Below, piece after piece: positions 23,416-51,173 of a stretch of DNA of 64,000 bases. Position 1 is the first letter of the stretch; each line of letters begins with the position of its first letter. The DNA is taken from assembly GCF_058153355.1 (NCBI RefSeq), contig NZ_CM177019.1, one strand, 5' to 3'. A program made the translations under genes and the position numbers. Below the pieces are notes generated by a model. That model saw only the letters and a program-made list of their open reading frames with translations, was not told the origin of the DNA and searched no databases.

Positions 23416-24267
23416 TTAACCCACGTAAGCTGCCAGCATTTCCTGTGCTGCCAGTTTACCCAACGCATTCGCTGCGAAAGGACTGTCGCCGGTGAGCAGT
23501 TTACGGTCTTTATGAACTCGCCCGGTGATGTCGTCATTAATAATGTTCATGCCCATTTTCTTCAGCTCTTCGCCGAAGTACCAGGTGAGATGACCCGGCA
23601 TATAGCCAATATCTGGCGTTTGTTTGTCTGCGGCGTCTGGGAATGCGCAAATGGAATAACCGTTCAGTGGGTTATCGCTGTGGCGAAGCGCCAGAAATGC
23701 CGCTGGGCCGTGGCAAAGGGAGATAACAAAACGGTCATTTTTGATTGCCCACTGTAAAGCGGCAGCTACGTCCTGGCTTTCTGGTAAACCAATAAGTGCG
23801 CCATGACCACCAGGAACAAAGATTGCTGCATATTCGCTGTCAGCATTGAGGCTGGCGACAATATCCGCGAGTTTCTTCGGATTGCGGAACAACGATTTAT
23901 GCTGCTCAAAGAACGGCATTACCTTTTCATCTTTGTGTGGCATAGCCCAGTATTCAAACTTGGTCATCAGGCCGGAAATGGTCGCCACTTCGAATTCGAA
24001 ACCTGCCGCATGGAGATGATACAACGGTAGCAACGTTTCAATCGGATGGTTACCGGTTGAGAACAATTTGCCATTGTCGGTCGGCAAATAACGTTCGTCC
24101 GCGGCGATCACCAGAATTTTGTGTTTACCGCGATACGGTTTTGGATAGTCCACGCCATCAAGATCAGAGACAGGACTGGTATATTGGCTAAGCGAATATT
24201 CTGAAGGGAAAAATGCATTATCTTCAGCAGTATCGACCTGCGGATCTTTACTTTTTTGAACAGTCAT
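23416..24267 (-). CDS. hchA: Hsp31 glyoxalase / chaperone HchA
   Basis: 283 aa; DJ-1/PfpI family with the catalytic Cys in ISLCHGP. Confidence 0.9.
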   Translation of the reverse strand: MTVQKSKDPQVDTAEDNAFFPSEYSLSQYTSPVSDLDGVDYPKPYRGKHKILVIAADERYLPTDNGKLFSTGNHPIETLLPLYHLHAAGFEFEVATISGLMTKFEYWAMPHKDEKVMPFFEQHKSLFRNPKKLADIVASLNADSEYAAIFVPGGHGALIGLPESQDVAAALQWAIKNDRFVISLCHGPAAFLALRHSDNPLNGYSICAFPDAADKQTPDIGYMPGHLTWYFGEELKKMGMNIINDDITGRVHKDRKLLTGDSPFAANALGKLAAQEMLAAYVG

Positions 24268-24771
24268 AGTGTATTCCTTGTTGTTGCTTAGTTAGGTTAG
24301 TCACTATATTTGCGACTGAGCTGGTCGCTATTTTTAACCAGGCTGGAAAATTGAGTCAATATATCGAAAGCGGTAGGCGACGAGGGAAAATATGTAATGA
24401 TGATGCTGCACTGATGTTGAATGTTTCTCACGCCAAATTTTCCTTTTTGAGTCATGTGGTCACAAGTGACTTCAATGATTTTAGACCATTATCAGAGGTC
24501 TGGGACGACGATGAGAGATTTAGTGCTATGGAATATTGTTATTCTGTTGAATATTTATATCCCGGACTGCTATAGAAAAGGCTTTTTTCATGCACTATTT
24601 TTGCAAATATTTTTATATGGGAGGCGGTTTTGTTGCGGATTAATTCATAAGAATGCGCATTTAGTGAGTTGGCTGGAAGAGTTACTGGTAGATGTTAGTG
24701 AGCCAGGTAGTGCAGGGTAATGTGCCATATCGATATGCTTTGGCAATGGCGCGTTTTGTAGATGAAAAGCC

Positions 24772-24810
24772 AAAAAAAGCCTGAATTCGATGAAAGGACG
24801 AACTCAGGCT
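24772..24810 (-). terminator. Rho-independent terminator of the porin gene
   Basis: Minus-strand hairpin agcctgagttcg...cgaattcaggct followed by a 7-nt T-run. Confidence 0.55.
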
Positions 24811-24852
24811 AGTGTTATGTTTTACAGTAACACGCCGAGGCGTGTTGGCTGA

Positions 24853-26046
24853 TTAGAACTGGTAGACTAAGCCCACAGCAACGATATCATCGGTAGCGAT
24901 GCCGTTTGCTTCGTAGAAGTCATCATCGTTGTCCAGCAGGTTAATTTTGTAATCAACATAGGTGGACATATTTTTGTTGAAGTAGTAGGTCGCACCGACT
25001 TCAACGTATTTAACCAGATCTTTGTTAGTGTAACGCGGGTCGCCGTTGCCGTCATGAGCCCAGCCGCCTAAATCCTTACCTTTAGATTGCAAGTAAGCGA
25101 TGGACGGGCGCAGACCGAAGTCGAACTGATACTGAGCAACAACTTCAAAGTTTTGGGTTTTGTTAGCGATGGCTGATCTTGAATCACCATTAGCAAACTC
25201 GCCACCACCATATGGGGTCATATTGCGAGTTTCAGCGTACATAGCTGCTAAATACACATTATTAGCATCATATTTTGCACCAACAGTCCATGCTTCAGCG
25301 GTTTCACCACCAGCATTTCTGTTGCTATGGTTACGATCATTTAAACCAACTCCAACCTGATGATCTGAACGATCAGAGTTTGAATATGCAGCACCCAGAT
25401 TTAAACCGAAGTCGAAGTCGTAGGATGTAGACATACCGAAACCATCACCATTTTCTTTGGAAAGGCTACGGCCATCACCACTACCGGAACCTTCCTGCCC
25501 GAATGGTCCACCACTTTCATTATTACCCTGATATTGTAAAGCAAAGTTCAAGCCATCAACCTGACCAAAGAAGCCATTATTACGGTAGGTTGCAACACCG
25601 TTGGTACGACCGTTCATGTAGTTGTCGGCACCCGCGTAGGTATCGCCACCAAATTCTGGCAGCATATCGGTCCATGCTTCGATGTCATATACGACACCGT
25701 AGTTACGACCATAATCGAAAGTACCATTCTGACCAAAACCTAAACCTGCGAATGCCAGACGGGTAGCTGAGTTATCTCCATCGCCTTCTGTGCCATTTGC
25801 TTGAAGGTTGTATTCCCACTGACCATAGCCAGTGAACTGGTCAGCGATTTGTGTTTCGCCTTTGAAACCGATACGGGCATATGACATATCGCCATCAGCG
25901 CCCGAGTTGTCAGAGAAGTAGTGCAGACCTACTACTTTTCCGTATAAATCCAGTTTATTGCCATCTTTATTATAAATTTCAGCCGCATTTGCTGCGCCAG
26001 CAACTAATAACGCCGGGACCAGCATTGCCAGAACTTTTCTTTTCAT
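24853..26046 (-). CDS. yedS: OmpC-family outer-membrane porin, apparently intact
   Basis: Start at [21 protein letters not shown] gives 397 aa; C-terminal VGLVYQF; synteny between hchA and yedR. Confidence 0.75.
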
Positions 26047-26674
26047 TATGTATTCCCTTGTGATTATAATCTTCATGAATATAACAATAAGTGCCGTTAT
26101 CCAAAAAAAAGCACATTTGGATACTATTCTATGAAGTTCATTTTATTTTAAGGATTACATGTAACAAATGTATTTAAAAGATTGCAAAATGTTTCTAATC
26201 TATTTAATATAATTCATGCAAATGAATTATGAATATAACCATTCATGATGGTTATGGATGTATATCAATGAGTTATGAATTTTATGGAAAGATAGGGAGT
26301 GTCAATGATTTTTGCGCCAGACGGCCTATGTGATCGCGCGCACATTAATGAAGGCATAAAAAAAGCCGGCATCATGCCGGCCCAAAAAATATAAACAAGA
26401 CGATAAAAGGCTAATAACGGGGTTATCATGACACAGAAATCTAAAAAGGTATAATTGTATTCAGTGCTAATGTATTGTTTGGGTGAATTAATAAAACCAT
26501 TATCCAAGATAAAAATAAATCTTTATTGCTGTTTTTCCGGTAATTATTGCCGTTGCGCAAAAACTATCTATTTGCTCAAAAAATGATTGAGTCTTGACTG
26601 ACTCATCCAATGTGGAAAAATGTGACTTTTATCACATAATAGTACTAAGTCTGAATTTTCCAGGTTATCTCAAA

Positions 26675-26977
26675 ATGGAGTACGGTTCGACAAAGATGGA
26701 AGAGAGACTCTCTCGCAGCCCTGGCGGCAAATTGGCTTTGTGGGCTTTCTATACATGGTGTGGCTATTTCGTCTGGGCAATGGCGCGATACATCTGGGTG
26801 ATGAGCCGGATCCCCGATGCCCCCGTGTCGGGATTTGAAAGTGATTTAGGATCTACTGCGGGGAAGTGGTTAGGAGCATTGGTCGGATTTCTGTTTATGG
26901 CCCTGGTTGGTGCCTTGCTAGGCGGCATTGCCTGGTACACCCGACCTCGTCCCGCACGTAGCAGACGCTATGAATAA
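26675..26977 (+). CDS. yedR: Small inner-membrane protein YedR
   Basis: Start MEYGSTKMEERLSR; two hydrophobic segments; synteny. Confidence 0.7.
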   Translation: MEYGSTKMEERLSRSPGGKLALWAFYTWCGYFVWAMARYIWVMSRIPDAPVSGFESDLGSTAGKWLGALVGFLFMALVGALLGGIAWYTRPRPARSRRYE

Positions 26978-27016
26978 AAACTGCTAAGGTTGCGACTCTT
27001 TGGCAACGGAGCGCGT

Positions 27017-27712
27017 ATGGACTTACAACACTGGCAGGCACAGTTCGAAAACTGGTTGAAAAACCATCATCAACATCAGGACGCGGCACATGCCCTGTGT
27101 CATTTTCGCCGTGTCTGGGCTACGGCACAGAAACTGGCGGCAGATGACGACGTTGATATGCTGGTGATTTTAACCGCTTGTTATTTTCACGATATCGTGA
27201 GCCTGGCGAAAAATCATCCGCAACGGCAGCGTTCTTCAATACTGGCAGCAGAAGAGACGCGTCGCCTGCTGCGTGAAGAATTCGCGCAATTTCCAGCGGA
27301 AAAAATCGAGGCTGTTTGCCATGCCATTGCCGCACACAGTTTTAGCGCGCAAATTGCCCCTTTAACGGTGGAAGCTAAAATCGTTCAGGATGCGGATCGG
27401 CTGGAAGCTCTGGGGGCGATTGGCCTGGCGCGTGTGTTTGCCGTTTCGGGGGCGTTGGGCGTGGCATTGTTTGATGGCGAAGATCCGTTCGCGCAGAATC
27501 GCCCACTTGATGATAAACGTTACGCGCTGGATCATTTTCAGACTAAGTTGCTGAAGCTACCGCACACCATGCAAACCATAAAAGGCAAACAACTGGCGCA
27601 GTACAACGCGCAATTTTTAGTCGAGTTTATGGCGAAGCTCAGTGCCGAGCTGGCGGGAGAGAATGAAGGTATCGATCACAAAGTGATTGATACGTTTTCA
27701 CCGGTTGGCTGA
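27017..27712 (+). CDS. yedJ: HD-domain phosphohydrolase YedJ
   Basis: 231 aa from [12 protein letters not shown] motif in CYFHDIV. Confidence 0.8.
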
Positions 27713-27778
27713 GCGCGTGGCCCTAAATGATGGTAATTATGTTAACCTGTCGACCATCTCAGATGGCCGGTTAAATCT

Positions 27779-29197
27779 ATGCAGGAAAATATATCAGTAA
27801 CCGATTCATACAGTACCGGGAATGCCGCACAGGCAATGCTGGAGCAACTGCTGCAAATTTATGATGTCAAAACGCTGGTGGCGCATCTTAATGGTGTGGG
27901 TGAGAATCACTGGAGCGCGGCAATTTTAAAACGTGCGCTGGCGAATGACTCAGCATGGCACCGTTTAAGTGAGAAAGAGTTCGCCCATCTGCAAACGTTG
28001 TTACCCATTCCACCGGCACATCATCCGCATTATGCGTTTCGCTTTATCGATCTATTTGCCGGGATTGGTGGTATTCGTCGCGGTTTTGAATCGATTGGTG
28101 GGCAGTGCGTGTTTACCAGCGAATGGAACAAACATGCGGTACGCACTTATAAAGCCAACTATTATTGCGACCCGGCGGCGCATCACTTTAATGAAGATAT
28201 TCGCGACATCACTCTCAGCCACAAAGAGGGTATAGGTGATGACGCGGCGGCGGAACATATCCGTCAACATATTCCTGAGCACGATGTTTTACTGGCCGGT
28301 TTTCCTTGTCAGCCGTTTTCTCTGGCTGGCGTATCGAAAAAGAACTCACTCGGACGAGCGCACGGTTTTGCCTGTGATACCCAGGGCACGCTGTTCTTCG
28401 ATGTGGTGCGTATTATCGACGCGCGTCGCCCGGCGATTTTTGTGCTCGAAAACGTCAAAAACCTGAAAAGCCACGACCAGGGGAAAACGTTCCGTATCAT
28501 CATGCAGACGTTGGACGAACTGGGCTATGACGTGGCAGATGCAGAAGATAATGGCCCGGACGATCCGAAAATCATTGACGGTAAACATTTCCTTCCGCAG
28601 CACCGTGAACGCATCGTGCTGGTGGGTTTTCGTCGCGACCTGAATCTGAAAGCCGATTTTACCCTGCGTGAGATCAGCAAATGTTTCCCTGCACAGCGAG
28701 TGACACTGGCGCAGTTGCTGGACCCGATGGTTGAGGCGAAATATATCCTGACGCCGGTGCTGTGGAAGTACCTCTATCGTTATGCGAAAAAACATCAGGC
28801 GCGCGGTAACGGCTTCGGTTATGGAATGGTTTATCCGAACAATCCGCAAAGCGTCACGCGTACGCTTTCTGCTCGTTATTACAAAGATGGCGCGGAAATT
28901 TTAATTGATCGCGGCTGGGATATAGCCACGGGTGAGAAAGACTTTGACGATCCGCAGAACCAGCAACACCGCCCACGTCGGTTAACGCCTCGTGAATGTG
29001 CGCGCTTAATGGGCTTTGAAGCACCAGGAGAAGCGAAATTTCGCATTCCGGTTTCGGACACTCAGGCCTATCGCCAGTTCGGTAACTCGGTGGTCGTGCC
29101 GGTCTTTGCCGCGGTGGCAAAACTGCTTGAGCCAAAAATCAAACAGGCAGTGGCGTTGCGTCAGCAGGAAGCAAAACATGGCCGACGTTCACGATAA
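27779..29197 (+). CDS. dcm: DNA-cytosine methyltransferase Dcm
   Basis: 472 aa; C5-methyltransferase motifs FAGIGG, PCQPFS, ENV. Confidence 0.9.
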
Positions 29198-29648
29198 GGC
29201 TACACGCAGCAAAAATATGCGCGCAATTGCCACGCGCGATACGGCGATTGAGAAGCGCCTCGCCAGTTTGTTAACCGGGCAGGGACTGGCGTTTCGCGTT
29301 CAGGATGCCAGTTTGCCCGGACGCCCGGATTTTGTTCTTGATGAATATCGCTGCGTGATATTTACCCACGGTTGCTTCTGGCACCATCATCACTGCTATC
29401 TGTTTAAAGTGCCCGCGACTCGAACCGAGTTCTGGCTGGAGAAGATAGGTAAAAATGTTGAGCGCGATCGCCGCGACATTAGCCGCTTGCAGGCGCTCGG
29501 CTGGCGTGTATTGATTGTCTGGGAGTGCGCGTTACGCGGGCGCGAAAAATTGACGGATGCGGCACTTACCGAGCGTCTGGAAGAGTGGATCTGCGGCGAA
29601 GGTGCCAGCGCGCAGATCGACACGCAGGGGATTCATTTACTCGCTTGA
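29178..29648 (+). CDS. vsr: Very-short-patch repair endonuclease Vsr
   Basis: ATG at 29178 overlapping the dcm 3' end; 156 aa starting [17 protein letters not shown]. Confidence 0.85.
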
Positions 29649-30557
29649 TGCGTCCTGAATAACTGGCGCAACTACGGGTTTTGCTGGGAAGAGATATTTT
29701 CCCAACGTGACCAGTACCACCGCGAAGACAATCACGCCGAGCGCCAGCCATTCAATCTTAGACAGCGTCTCTCCGCCCAGTCCCGTACCCAGCAAGACCG
29801 CGACCACCGGGTTAACGTAGGCGTAGCTGGTGGCGAGAGCCGGACTGACGTTGCGGATTAAATACATATAAGCGTTAATGGCGATAATCGAACCAAACAG
29901 CGCCAGATAGCCGACCGCAAGGAAGCCTGAAAGGGAAGGGAGCGCCGTCAGTTTTTCACCCGCAATCATCGACGCAATCATTAACACCACGCCAGCCGCC
30001 AGCATCTCAATCGCACCCGCCATCATCCCTACAGGTAAGGTAATGCGCGAGCCATAAACCGAGCCAAACGCCCAGCTAATCGAGCCGATTAAAATCAGAA
30101 TCGCACCCCACGGATTGCCGCTTAAATTTCCACCGCTATTGAGCATGATGATTCCGGCAAGCCCAATGGCGATACCCACCCATTCCAGTTTGCGCGTTTT
30201 AATGCCAAACAGGCGGCTGAAGCACAGGGTAAAGAGGGGCACGGTTGCAACCACTACGGCGGCGATGCCGGATGGAACATTTTGATGTTCGGCAACTGTC
30301 ACCATGCCATTACCGACAGCCAGCAATAACAGGCCAATCAGCGCGGCATTGATCAGCGGACGTAGCGGGGGGAGTTTGTGTCCGCGCAGTAGCAAAAATG
30401 CCAGCAATAAAATACCGGCTGCCAGGAATCGAACGCCCGCCATCATTAACGGAGGCCAGCTTTCCACGCCAATCCGAATGACAAAATAGGTTGAGCCCCA
30501 AATGATATACAACGCAAACAGCGCGCCAAAAAGCGGTAACAACTGGCGGAAACGCAT
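29637..30557 (-). CDS. yedA: EamA-family (drug/metabolite) transporter YedA
   Basis: 306 aa, ten predicted transmembrane segments; 3' end overlaps vsr convergently. Confidence 0.85.
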   Translation of the reverse strand: MRFRQLLPLFGALFALYIIWGSTYFVIRIGVESWPPLMMAGVRFLAAGILLLAFLLLRGHKLPPLRPLINAALIGLLLLAVGNGMVTVAEHQNVPSGIAAVVVATVPLFTLCFSRLFGIKTRKLEWVGIAIGLAGIIMLNSGGNLSGNPWGAILILIGSISWAFGSVYGSRITLPVGMMAGAIEMLAAGVVLMIASMIAGEKLTALPSLSGFLAVGYLALFGSIIAINAYMYLIRNVSPALATSYAYVNPVVAVLLGTGLGGETLSKIEWLALGVIVFAVVLVTLGKYLFPAKPVVAPVIQDASSE

Positions 30558-34782: not shown

Positions 34783-34870
34783 AACACATCAGATTTCCTG
34801 GTGTAACGAATTTTTTAAGTGCTTCTTGCTTAAGCAAGTTTAATCCCGACCCCCTCAGGGTCGGGATTTT
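34783..34870 (+). ncRNA. dsrA: DsrA small regulatory RNA
   Basis: aacacatcagatttcctggtgtaacgaattttttaagtgcttcttgcttaagcaagtttaatcccgaccccctcagggtcgggattt matches DsrA as recalled, with terminator hairpin and T-run. Confidence 0.9.
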
Positions 34871-49589: not shown

Positions 49590-50090
49590 AAGTATTTTAT
49601 GAAGGAGCAACAGCATCGATTTTTATTTTGGAAAATCAATACGGCATACTCAACCTATTGGAGCCTGAACAATCCGGTGACTTCTGCGCTAATCGGGGAC
49701 GTTTATAAGCACATATAATTGATACTCTCTTCCTCCATCACAATTTCAGAAATGCACGTGTGATTTTTTGGCATCCGGCGTTTGGACTATGTGGAGTTCA
49801 AGAGTGGGAAAGTTACAAGAGGTTGAGGGGATAATTAAAGGGATGCTTATGACATTAGATATCCGGTTAGGTACGGATATCGTTGTTATTAAATCTAATT
49901 GATACGTTAATTGTTCACTGAGTATTATTAAAAATGGGGCGTTGAAACGCCCCAGAAAATAAAGGGTAATATATAACAGAAGGTTTATATAGTCAGAAGC
50001 AAGATAGCGCTTCTAAGGAAAGTGGCTTGAGGGGGCCACTTATATGTTGGGGAGGCAAAGCCTCCCACAACATATCTTTGAGTAATCAGA

Positions 50091-51173
50091 TTAGAACTGG
50101 TAAACCAATCCTACAGCAACGATATCATCGGTAGCAACGCCAGATGCTTTCGTGAAATCGCTCTTATCAATCAGGTTGATTTTGTAATCAACAAAAGTGG
50201 ACATATTTTTGTTGAAGTAATAGGTTGCACCTACATCAATATATTCAACCAGGTCCTGATCACCCCACGCACCCAAGTCTTTTCCTTTAGATTGCAGGTA
50301 AGCAACGGACGGACGCAGACCGAAGTCGAACTGATATTGTGCAACTACTTCGAAGTTTTGTGCTTTGTTGGCAATATGGTTATTACCAAAAACAGTCATG
50401 TTCTGGGTTTCAGAATAGGTGGTAGCCAGATAGATGTTGTTCGCATCATATTTCAGACCAGCTGCCCATACTTCAGCATTTTGACCAGATGCATTCAGGC
50501 TGTTGTTACCGTAGATAACCTGATCATTAGTGCGGTCAGATTTAGCATAGGTTGCACCTACACCGAATCCTTCATACTCATAAGTAGTGGAGAAACCGAA
50601 ACCATCACCGTTAGCTTCAGTTACGTCAGTGCGGTCATTTTTACCCTGATACTGAGCAGCAAAGTTCAGACCATCAACCAGACCAAAGAAGTCGTTGTTA
50701 CGATAAGTTGCAACACCTGTGGTGCGACCAGTCATGAACACATCTGTTTGGGTCCAGGTATCGCCACCGAATTCTGGCAGAACGTCGGTCCATGCACCGA
50801 TATCGTATGCTACACCGTAGTTACGGCCATAATCGATGGAGCCGTAGTCACCGAATTTCAGGCCAGCGAAGGCAAGACGGGTTTTATCTTTGGAAGAACC
50901 TTGAGATTCAGCACGGTTGCCTTTGAATTCATATTCCCACTGACCGAAACCAGTCAGTTGATCGTTGATTTGGGTTTCGCCTTTGAAGCCCAGACGAACA
51001 TAAGTTGTGTCGCCATCATCTGCATCGTTAGAAGAGAAGTAGTGCTTAGCATTAACTTTTCCGTACAGATCCAGCTTGTTACTGTCTTTATTGTAAATCT
51101 CTGCTGCCTGAGCAGACATCGCCATCAGTACTGATGCAGCTACAGCAGAAATTGCCACTGTTAATTTTTTCAT
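50091..51173 (-). CDS. OmpC/NmpC-family outer-membrane porin (prophage-type)
   Basis: 360 aa; signal peptide [24 protein letters not shown]-terminal VGLVYQF; several downstream hairpins. Confidence 0.8.

Follow-up and report, generated by a model that had tools for sequence, protein, structure and literature searches.

The AT-rich gap between yedS and drpB (yedR) in the window, the 64,000-nt stretch of contig NZ_CM177019.1 (assembly GCF_058153355.1) analysed here, carries at positions 26358-26447 of the minus strand what is almost certainly the orthologue of E. coli rseX, the gene for a ~90-nt Hfq-dependent, trans-acting small RNA. The first-pass annotation had expected RseX between yedR and yedS without pinpointing it. 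The Rfam family RF01401 now places it there, with a match over the entire model (positions 1-94 of 94) that scores 99.8 bits against a gathering threshold of 50, with E = 1.3e-12 over both strands of the 64-kb window and E = 1.9e-14 in a permissive local rescan of 25900-26800. The alignment of K-12 rseX on which that expectation depended is also found: the 91-nt K-12 gene (b4603; NC_000913.3 2033649-2033739) aligns colinearly to 26358-26447, the same bases as the Rfam match, and the terminator scan finds the anticipated hairpin with a T-run in the interval. rseX and yedS point in the same direction, with 311 nt separating the 3' end of rseX from the start codon of yedS downstream. The predicted RNA runs from a 5' end at 26447 (UUUUUAGAUUUCUGUGUCAUG...), for which we rely on the annotation of K-12 and on 5' RACE data cited in PMC8313858, to a U7 tail ending at 26358. 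The rseX described here is an already known gene in a known place, now with exact coordinates; its identity, coordinates, strand, terminator, -10 hexamer and synteny, and the purifying selection acting on it, are read from the sequence of the window.

No other Rfam match above gathering was found in the interval, either in the whole-window scan or in the permissive rescan of 25900-26800. Matches to RyhB, AniS, Esr41, Bp1_781 and RnaG were rejected, as they score 19-22 bits against gathering thresholds of 50-153; all except RnaG, which lies at 26428-26543, fall on the RseX terminator and are probably due to a general resemblance among terminators. Two open reading frames were set aside as well, one of 80 aa that overlaps rseX (26265-26507, minus strand) and one of 43 aa (26455-26586, plus strand), each with a TTG start and each spanning a fast-evolving spacer.

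The region had been described as an AT-rich gap, and such a gap, non-coding, is indeed present: over 26000-26700 the GC content ranges from 24.5 to 38%, and the genes on either side have 45-55%. The right edge proposed for the gap, 26674, is exact, as the ATG of drpB (yedR) stands at 26675; this start codon has been established experimentally for K-12 (PMC7648144). The left edge, 26077, should be shifted. It had been drawn from the longest possible reading frame (ATG at 26076), whereas the conserved porin ATG is at 26046, in agreement with the K-12 annotation of yedS and with the signal peptide and an AAGGGA Shine-Dalgarno sequence. The corrected intergenic region between yedS and drpB spans 26047-26674 and measures 628 bp. 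On one side of it drpB (26675-26977, plus strand), divergent from rseX, encodes a 100-aa cell-division protein and matches the NCBIfam equivalog NF038392 with 151.7 bits against a cutoff of 50. On the other side, 3' of rseX, yedS (24853-26046, minus strand) encodes an OmpC-family porin of 397 aa. The yedS gene was thought to be intact, and it is: its 397 codons contain no stop, and the translation gives a full-length match to the NCBIfam OmpC-subfamily model NF007841 (539.2 bits, cutoff 484), with residues 1-397 spanning model positions 1-368 of 368. In K-12, yedS is an annotated pseudogene. The distal part of the window's yedS (approximately 24800-25500) is only ~67% identical to N96, the genome with the closest match to the intergenic region, and this suggests highly variable porin alleles.

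The sequence of RseX is unevenly conserved along its length. Like the K-12 gene (b4603; RF01401), the rseX of the window lies between drpB and yedS, on the same strand relative to yedS and behind the same -10 hexamer, and nucleotides 29-90 are identical to K-12 at 62 of 62 positions, terminator and AUGAU loop included. Unlike K-12, the window has one U fewer in the tail, a poorer -35 element and an intact yedS, and its RseX carries seven substitutions in the 5' third, where 21 of nucleotides 1-28 are identical. All substitutions relative to K-12 fall within nucleotides 7-9, where UUA is replaced by GAU, and nucleotides 24-27, where GCUU is replaced by AACC. The second cluster coincides with the loop (nucleotides 24-29) of a 5' hairpin formed by nucleotides 14-38 (26410-26434, minus strand) in the Rfam consensus structure. 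The stem cells of this hairpin are 96-100% paired across nine sequences, with an alternative 7-bp register providing an equally good fit. Downstream of the hairpin, a U/A-rich linker of nucleotides 39-64, CCUUUUAUCGUCUUGUUUAUAUUUUUU (26384-26409, minus strand), is single-stranded in both the minimum free energy (MFE) and the Rfam structures and shows no change between the window and K-12; judging by these models, it is likely the Hfq-binding and pairing region of the RNA. The linker is followed by an intrinsic terminator at 26358-26383 (minus strand), recovered by both the terminator scan and the MFE fold, in which GGGCCGGCA-UGA-UGCCGGCUU precedes a U run. The terminator has nine pairs, six of them G-C, a loop of three and a U7 tail, and the base of its stem displays one compensatory change in Citrobacter, from G-C to A-U. 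We detected no covariation in the 5' hairpin across the nine sequences, with both registers and the terminator included in the analysis, a result that is uninformative because the RseX stems hardly vary among the sequences. The MFE of the whole RNA is -19.2 kcal/mol (z = -2.2 against shuffled sequences). The terminator would end RseX in a Rho-independent manner, with the U tail and the preceding U/A-rich linker forming the usual Hfq-binding module. In all Escherichia sequences, though not in Citrobacter, conservation continues for ~35 nt directly after the terminator (26325-26357, minus strand; UAUGCCUUCAUUAAUGUGCGC..GAUCACA).

The predicted sigma-70 promoter of rseX is weak, as its -10 hexamer is good and its -35 poor. 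The -10 hexamer, TACAAT (26454-26459, minus strand), occupies positions -12 to -7 from the K-12-annotated 5' end; the 12 bp preceding +1 are identical to K-12, and T1 and T6 of the hexamer are kept in all Escherichia sequences. The -35 element, CCAAAC at 17-bp spacing, is worse than TTAATC of K-12, and the consensus promoter scan reported no minus-strand promoter at rseX. The poor -35 is in keeping with the reported absence of detectable RseX from the wild type (PMC8313858).

The divergence from K-12 is not confined to the intergenic region. A 6-kb locus around rseX (23602-29596) is 92.4% identical to K-12, and the notion that the gap alone has diverged was rejected, as the neighbouring yedJ-dcm-vsr segment (26990-29650) is likewise only 90-95% identical to most E. 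coli, namely to 5128 of 5367 genomes, with identity of at least 99% to only three. This range of identities indicates that the whole window belongs to a divergent Escherichia lineage. It is ~99% identical to a handful of strains labelled 'E. coli', such as 2013C-4282 and WL297. Such a lineage provides a natural comparison, in which the 3' two-thirds of RseX are fixed and variation is tolerated at the 5' end and in the hairpin loop. The spacers adjoining rseX evolve quickly: the stretch 5' of the -10 hexamer (approximately -118 to -13; 26460-26564) is 73% identical to K-12, and that between the rseX terminator and the yedS leader (26216-26336) is 76% identical and is poorly conserved in A3 too. 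The fixation of nucleotides 29-90 between spacers of 73-76% identity indicates purifying selection; at the intergenic rate of divergence, the chance of 62 bases remaining unchanged is ~5e-4.

The same contrast extends to other species. Scanning one genome per species with a sequence pattern recovered rseX in seven further loci, all confirmed by Rfam at 71-95 bits and belonging to E. albertii, E. whittamii, two other Escherichia species, two divergent 'E. coli' and Citrobacter amalonaticus. The other seven of the 14 pattern matches, none of them enterobacterial and found in Bacteroidia, Fibrella, Succinivibrio and other metagenome-assembled genomes (MAGs), have no Rfam rseX match and were dismissed as chance. 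Across six other Escherichia genomes, 57-62 of the 62 positions of nucleotides 29-90 are identical, against 24-40 of 48 in the stretch from -60 to -13; in these species the flanks are 81-92% identical, and the identity of the spacers next to rseX goes down to 50-76%. The order drpB, rseX, porin is common to K-12, N96, the six other Escherichia genomes and Citrobacter amalonaticus, where the porin is yedS-like. Among complete E. coli genomes the rseX region is present in 4876 of 5426, so that ~10% are without it. The allele of the window is rare: over 141 nt, 16 of the 4876 genomes match it with at least 99% identity, and one matches it at 100%.

These distributions bear on the question of whether rseX is a decaying relic, a pseudo-sRNA that is never expressed and persists only because the locus is recent or has accumulated few mutations. 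Several observations lean in this direction: native RseX was not detected in wild-type cells (PMC8313858), the -35 element is weak and the scan reported no rseX promoter, about a tenth of complete E. coli genomes do not have the region, and the neighbouring yedS is a pseudogene in K-12. A young or little-mutated locus is at odds, however, with the unevenness of its conservation, whereby nucleotides 29-90 retain 57-62 of 62 positions across Escherichia and the spacers drop to 50-76%, and with the maintenance of rseX and its synteny in Citrobacter. RseX is also expressed once H-NS is removed (PMC8313858). We consider a relic highly improbable, and regard rseX as a gene maintained by selection.

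The conserved block might instead act mainly in cis on yedS, as an attenuator or insulator composed of a short transcript and a terminator, which would make the trans effects of overexpressed RseX secondary. This appears unlikely. The arrangement is suggestive, as rseX lies on the yedS strand with its 3' end 311 nt before the start codon, the tandem layout is conserved into Citrobacter, and the ~35 nt after the terminator are also conserved in Escherichia. Against this, the terminator is a strong one (six G-C pairs, U7-8 tail), and neither MFE folding nor the terminator scan shows an alternative antiterminator fold. The strength of the terminator argues against simple read-through into yedS. 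Past the fast-evolving spacer, yedS has a highly conserved promoter-like leader of its own with OmpR-type half-sites, and plasmid-borne RseX acts in trans on ompA, ompC, fimB, ihfB and fepA (PMC8313858, PMC11979758). A trans-acting role of RseX remains our preferred reading of the conserved block.

The promoter and leader block of yedS (26047-26215, minus strand) is 98.2% identical to its K-12 counterpart, whereas identity in the spacer next to it is 76%. In an eight-species alignment this leader of ~170 bp is nearly invariant from Escherichia to Citrobacter and is more conserved than either RseX or the coding flanks. The leader contains GAAACAT (26195-26189) and GTTACAT (26165-26159), 30 bp apart, which resemble OmpR-type half-sites. 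The motif GWWACAT is thus observed twice in the leader, with 0.05 occurrences expected, and is also found twice upstream of K-12 ompC. An 8-bp inverted repeat, TATCCAAA-N10-TTTGGATA, is present at 26098-26123 of the leader.

A sigma-70 promoter-like site is found on the strand opposite to rseX, at 26428-26455 (plus strand). It consists of ATGACA, a 16-bp spacer and TATAAT, and matches the consensus at 11 of 12 positions. The site and the rseX promoter stand back-to-back, the -35 of the site falling within RseX nucleotides 15-20. The conservation of the RseX 5' end (GUGUCAU and the upstream ATTATACC) could in part reflect a functional promoter at this site, which would give drpB a long leader or compete with the rseX promoter. 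Such a contribution is conceivable, though we think it rather doubtful. The site is the only match of at least 11 of 12 in the 64-kb window, both of its hexamers are kept in all Escherichia sequences, and the predicted starts of the two promoters are ~15 bp apart. Conversely, 6% of shuffled AT-rich intergenic sequences also yield a site of at least 11 of 12, and the mapped drpB promoter is a distinct one, located between the old GTG start (26612) and the ATG at 26675 (PMC7648144). The -10 hexamer of the site is lost in Citrobacter, and TGTGTCAT is invariant there too; the function of the RNA alone can therefore explain the conservation.

The promoter-proximal block of drpB (26565-26674, plus strand) is 97.3% identical to K-12. 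The consensus promoter scan places promoter-like sites in it at 26594-26621 and 26613-26640. On the rseX strand, this block also holds a terminator-like hairpin, TGAGTCAGTCAAGACTCA then ATCATTTTTT (26588-26605, minus strand), which overlaps the plus-strand TTGACT, a -35-like hexamer.

What RseX does is known from K-12 and is taken here from published work, which supplies its Hfq dependence, its targets and its control by H-NS. RseX, 91 nt long, is reported to reduce OmpA and OmpC (PMC7648144, PMC8313858) and also to bind and repress fimB and ihfB (PMC8313858). Its 3' end represses fepA in a manner that requires exposed bases of the terminator loop, Hfq and RNase E; the study in question saw no evidence of direct pairing and leaves the mechanism undefined (PMC11979758). 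The terminator and the AUGAU loop are unchanged in the window relative to K-12. So is the segment CCGUUAUUAGCC, which faces the Shine-Dalgarno sequence of ompA in the predicted duplex. The duplexes that RNAduplex predicts for RseX with the K-12 ompA and ompC leaders have energies of -28.3 and -28.6 kcal/mol, with z-scores of -0.9 and -1.7 against shuffled sequences; the K-12 leaders stand in for those of this genome, whose ompA and ompC lie outside the window. Taken together, both RseX alleles paired with the K-12 ompA and ompC leaders and with the window's yedS leader do not outperform shuffled sRNAs (z between +0.4 and -1.7), and duplex energies of this kind provide no evidence for or against pairing. 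yedS itself does not emerge as a target of RseX from the RNAduplex comparison with its leader.

H-NS silences RseX in K-12, with StpA as a backup, and the RNA is detectable in hns mutants and undetectable in the wild type (PMC8313858). The GC content of the gap, 24-38%, fits a region bound by H-NS. rseX shares this one AT-rich region with the normally silent alternative porin gene yedS, standing directly upstream of it in the same orientation. yedS is probably the counterpart of the Salmonella porin gene ompS1. The latter is silenced by H-NS and StpA and activated by LeuO (PMC4264507). From the tandem position of rseX beside a silent yedS and from this mode of ompS1 control we infer that the two might be de-repressed together, in which case the major porins would be lowered when the alternative porin is made. 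Co-regulation of rseX with yedS is thus suggested by gene arrangement and by analogy. More speculatively, rseX, its terminator and the yedS leader may constitute a single H-NS-silenced 'porin-swap' cassette, shared from Citrobacter to Escherichia. Lifting the silencing would let the sRNA remove OmpC and OmpA as YedS is made, and the opposite-strand promoter would help keep rseX off in the silenced state. We regard this scheme as tentative and more probably wrong than right.

The arrangement has parallels among known porin regulators. MicF and MicC are, like RseX, small Hfq-dependent RNAs that repress major porins and are encoded beside a different porin gene: micF adjoins ompC in K-12, and micC adjoins ompN. 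Unlike rseX, which is in tandem with yedS and upstream of it, both are divergent from the neighbouring porin gene. They show no sequence similarity to RseX, and the interval contains no Rfam match to either. The repression of fepA through exposed terminator-loop bases is a feature that RseX shares with the 3' ends of SdsR and ArrS (PMC11979758), which are unrelated to it in both sequence and locus.

Among the RefSeq matches listed for positions 26340-26480, rseX is annotated as an ncRNA in K-12 MG1655 only. In the PGAP-annotated RefSeq genomes among the matches listed, the feature under the rseX match is 'none', and the absence of rseX from PGAP annotation looks like a systematic gap. The gene can now be annotated at exact coordinates in GCF_058153355.1, which mainly serves to fill this gap. 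The yedS-yedR intergenic region is in use as a marker of the host source of E. coli, in a paper that makes no mention of rseX (PMC11267920). Telling the functional parts of the region from the freely varying spacers helps to interpret such source-tracking markers.

Elsewhere in the window, Rfam matches above gathering were found for CssrB (15824-16003, plus strand, 230 bits), IS009 (16760-16963, plus strand, 129 bits) and DsrA (34783-34869, plus strand, 103 bits), the last in the position that synteny with K-12 predicts. A second porin-like sequence is present at approximately 50089-51098, and its DNA shares 65-76% identity with yedS-type porins as well as with the 5' end of K-12 ompC.
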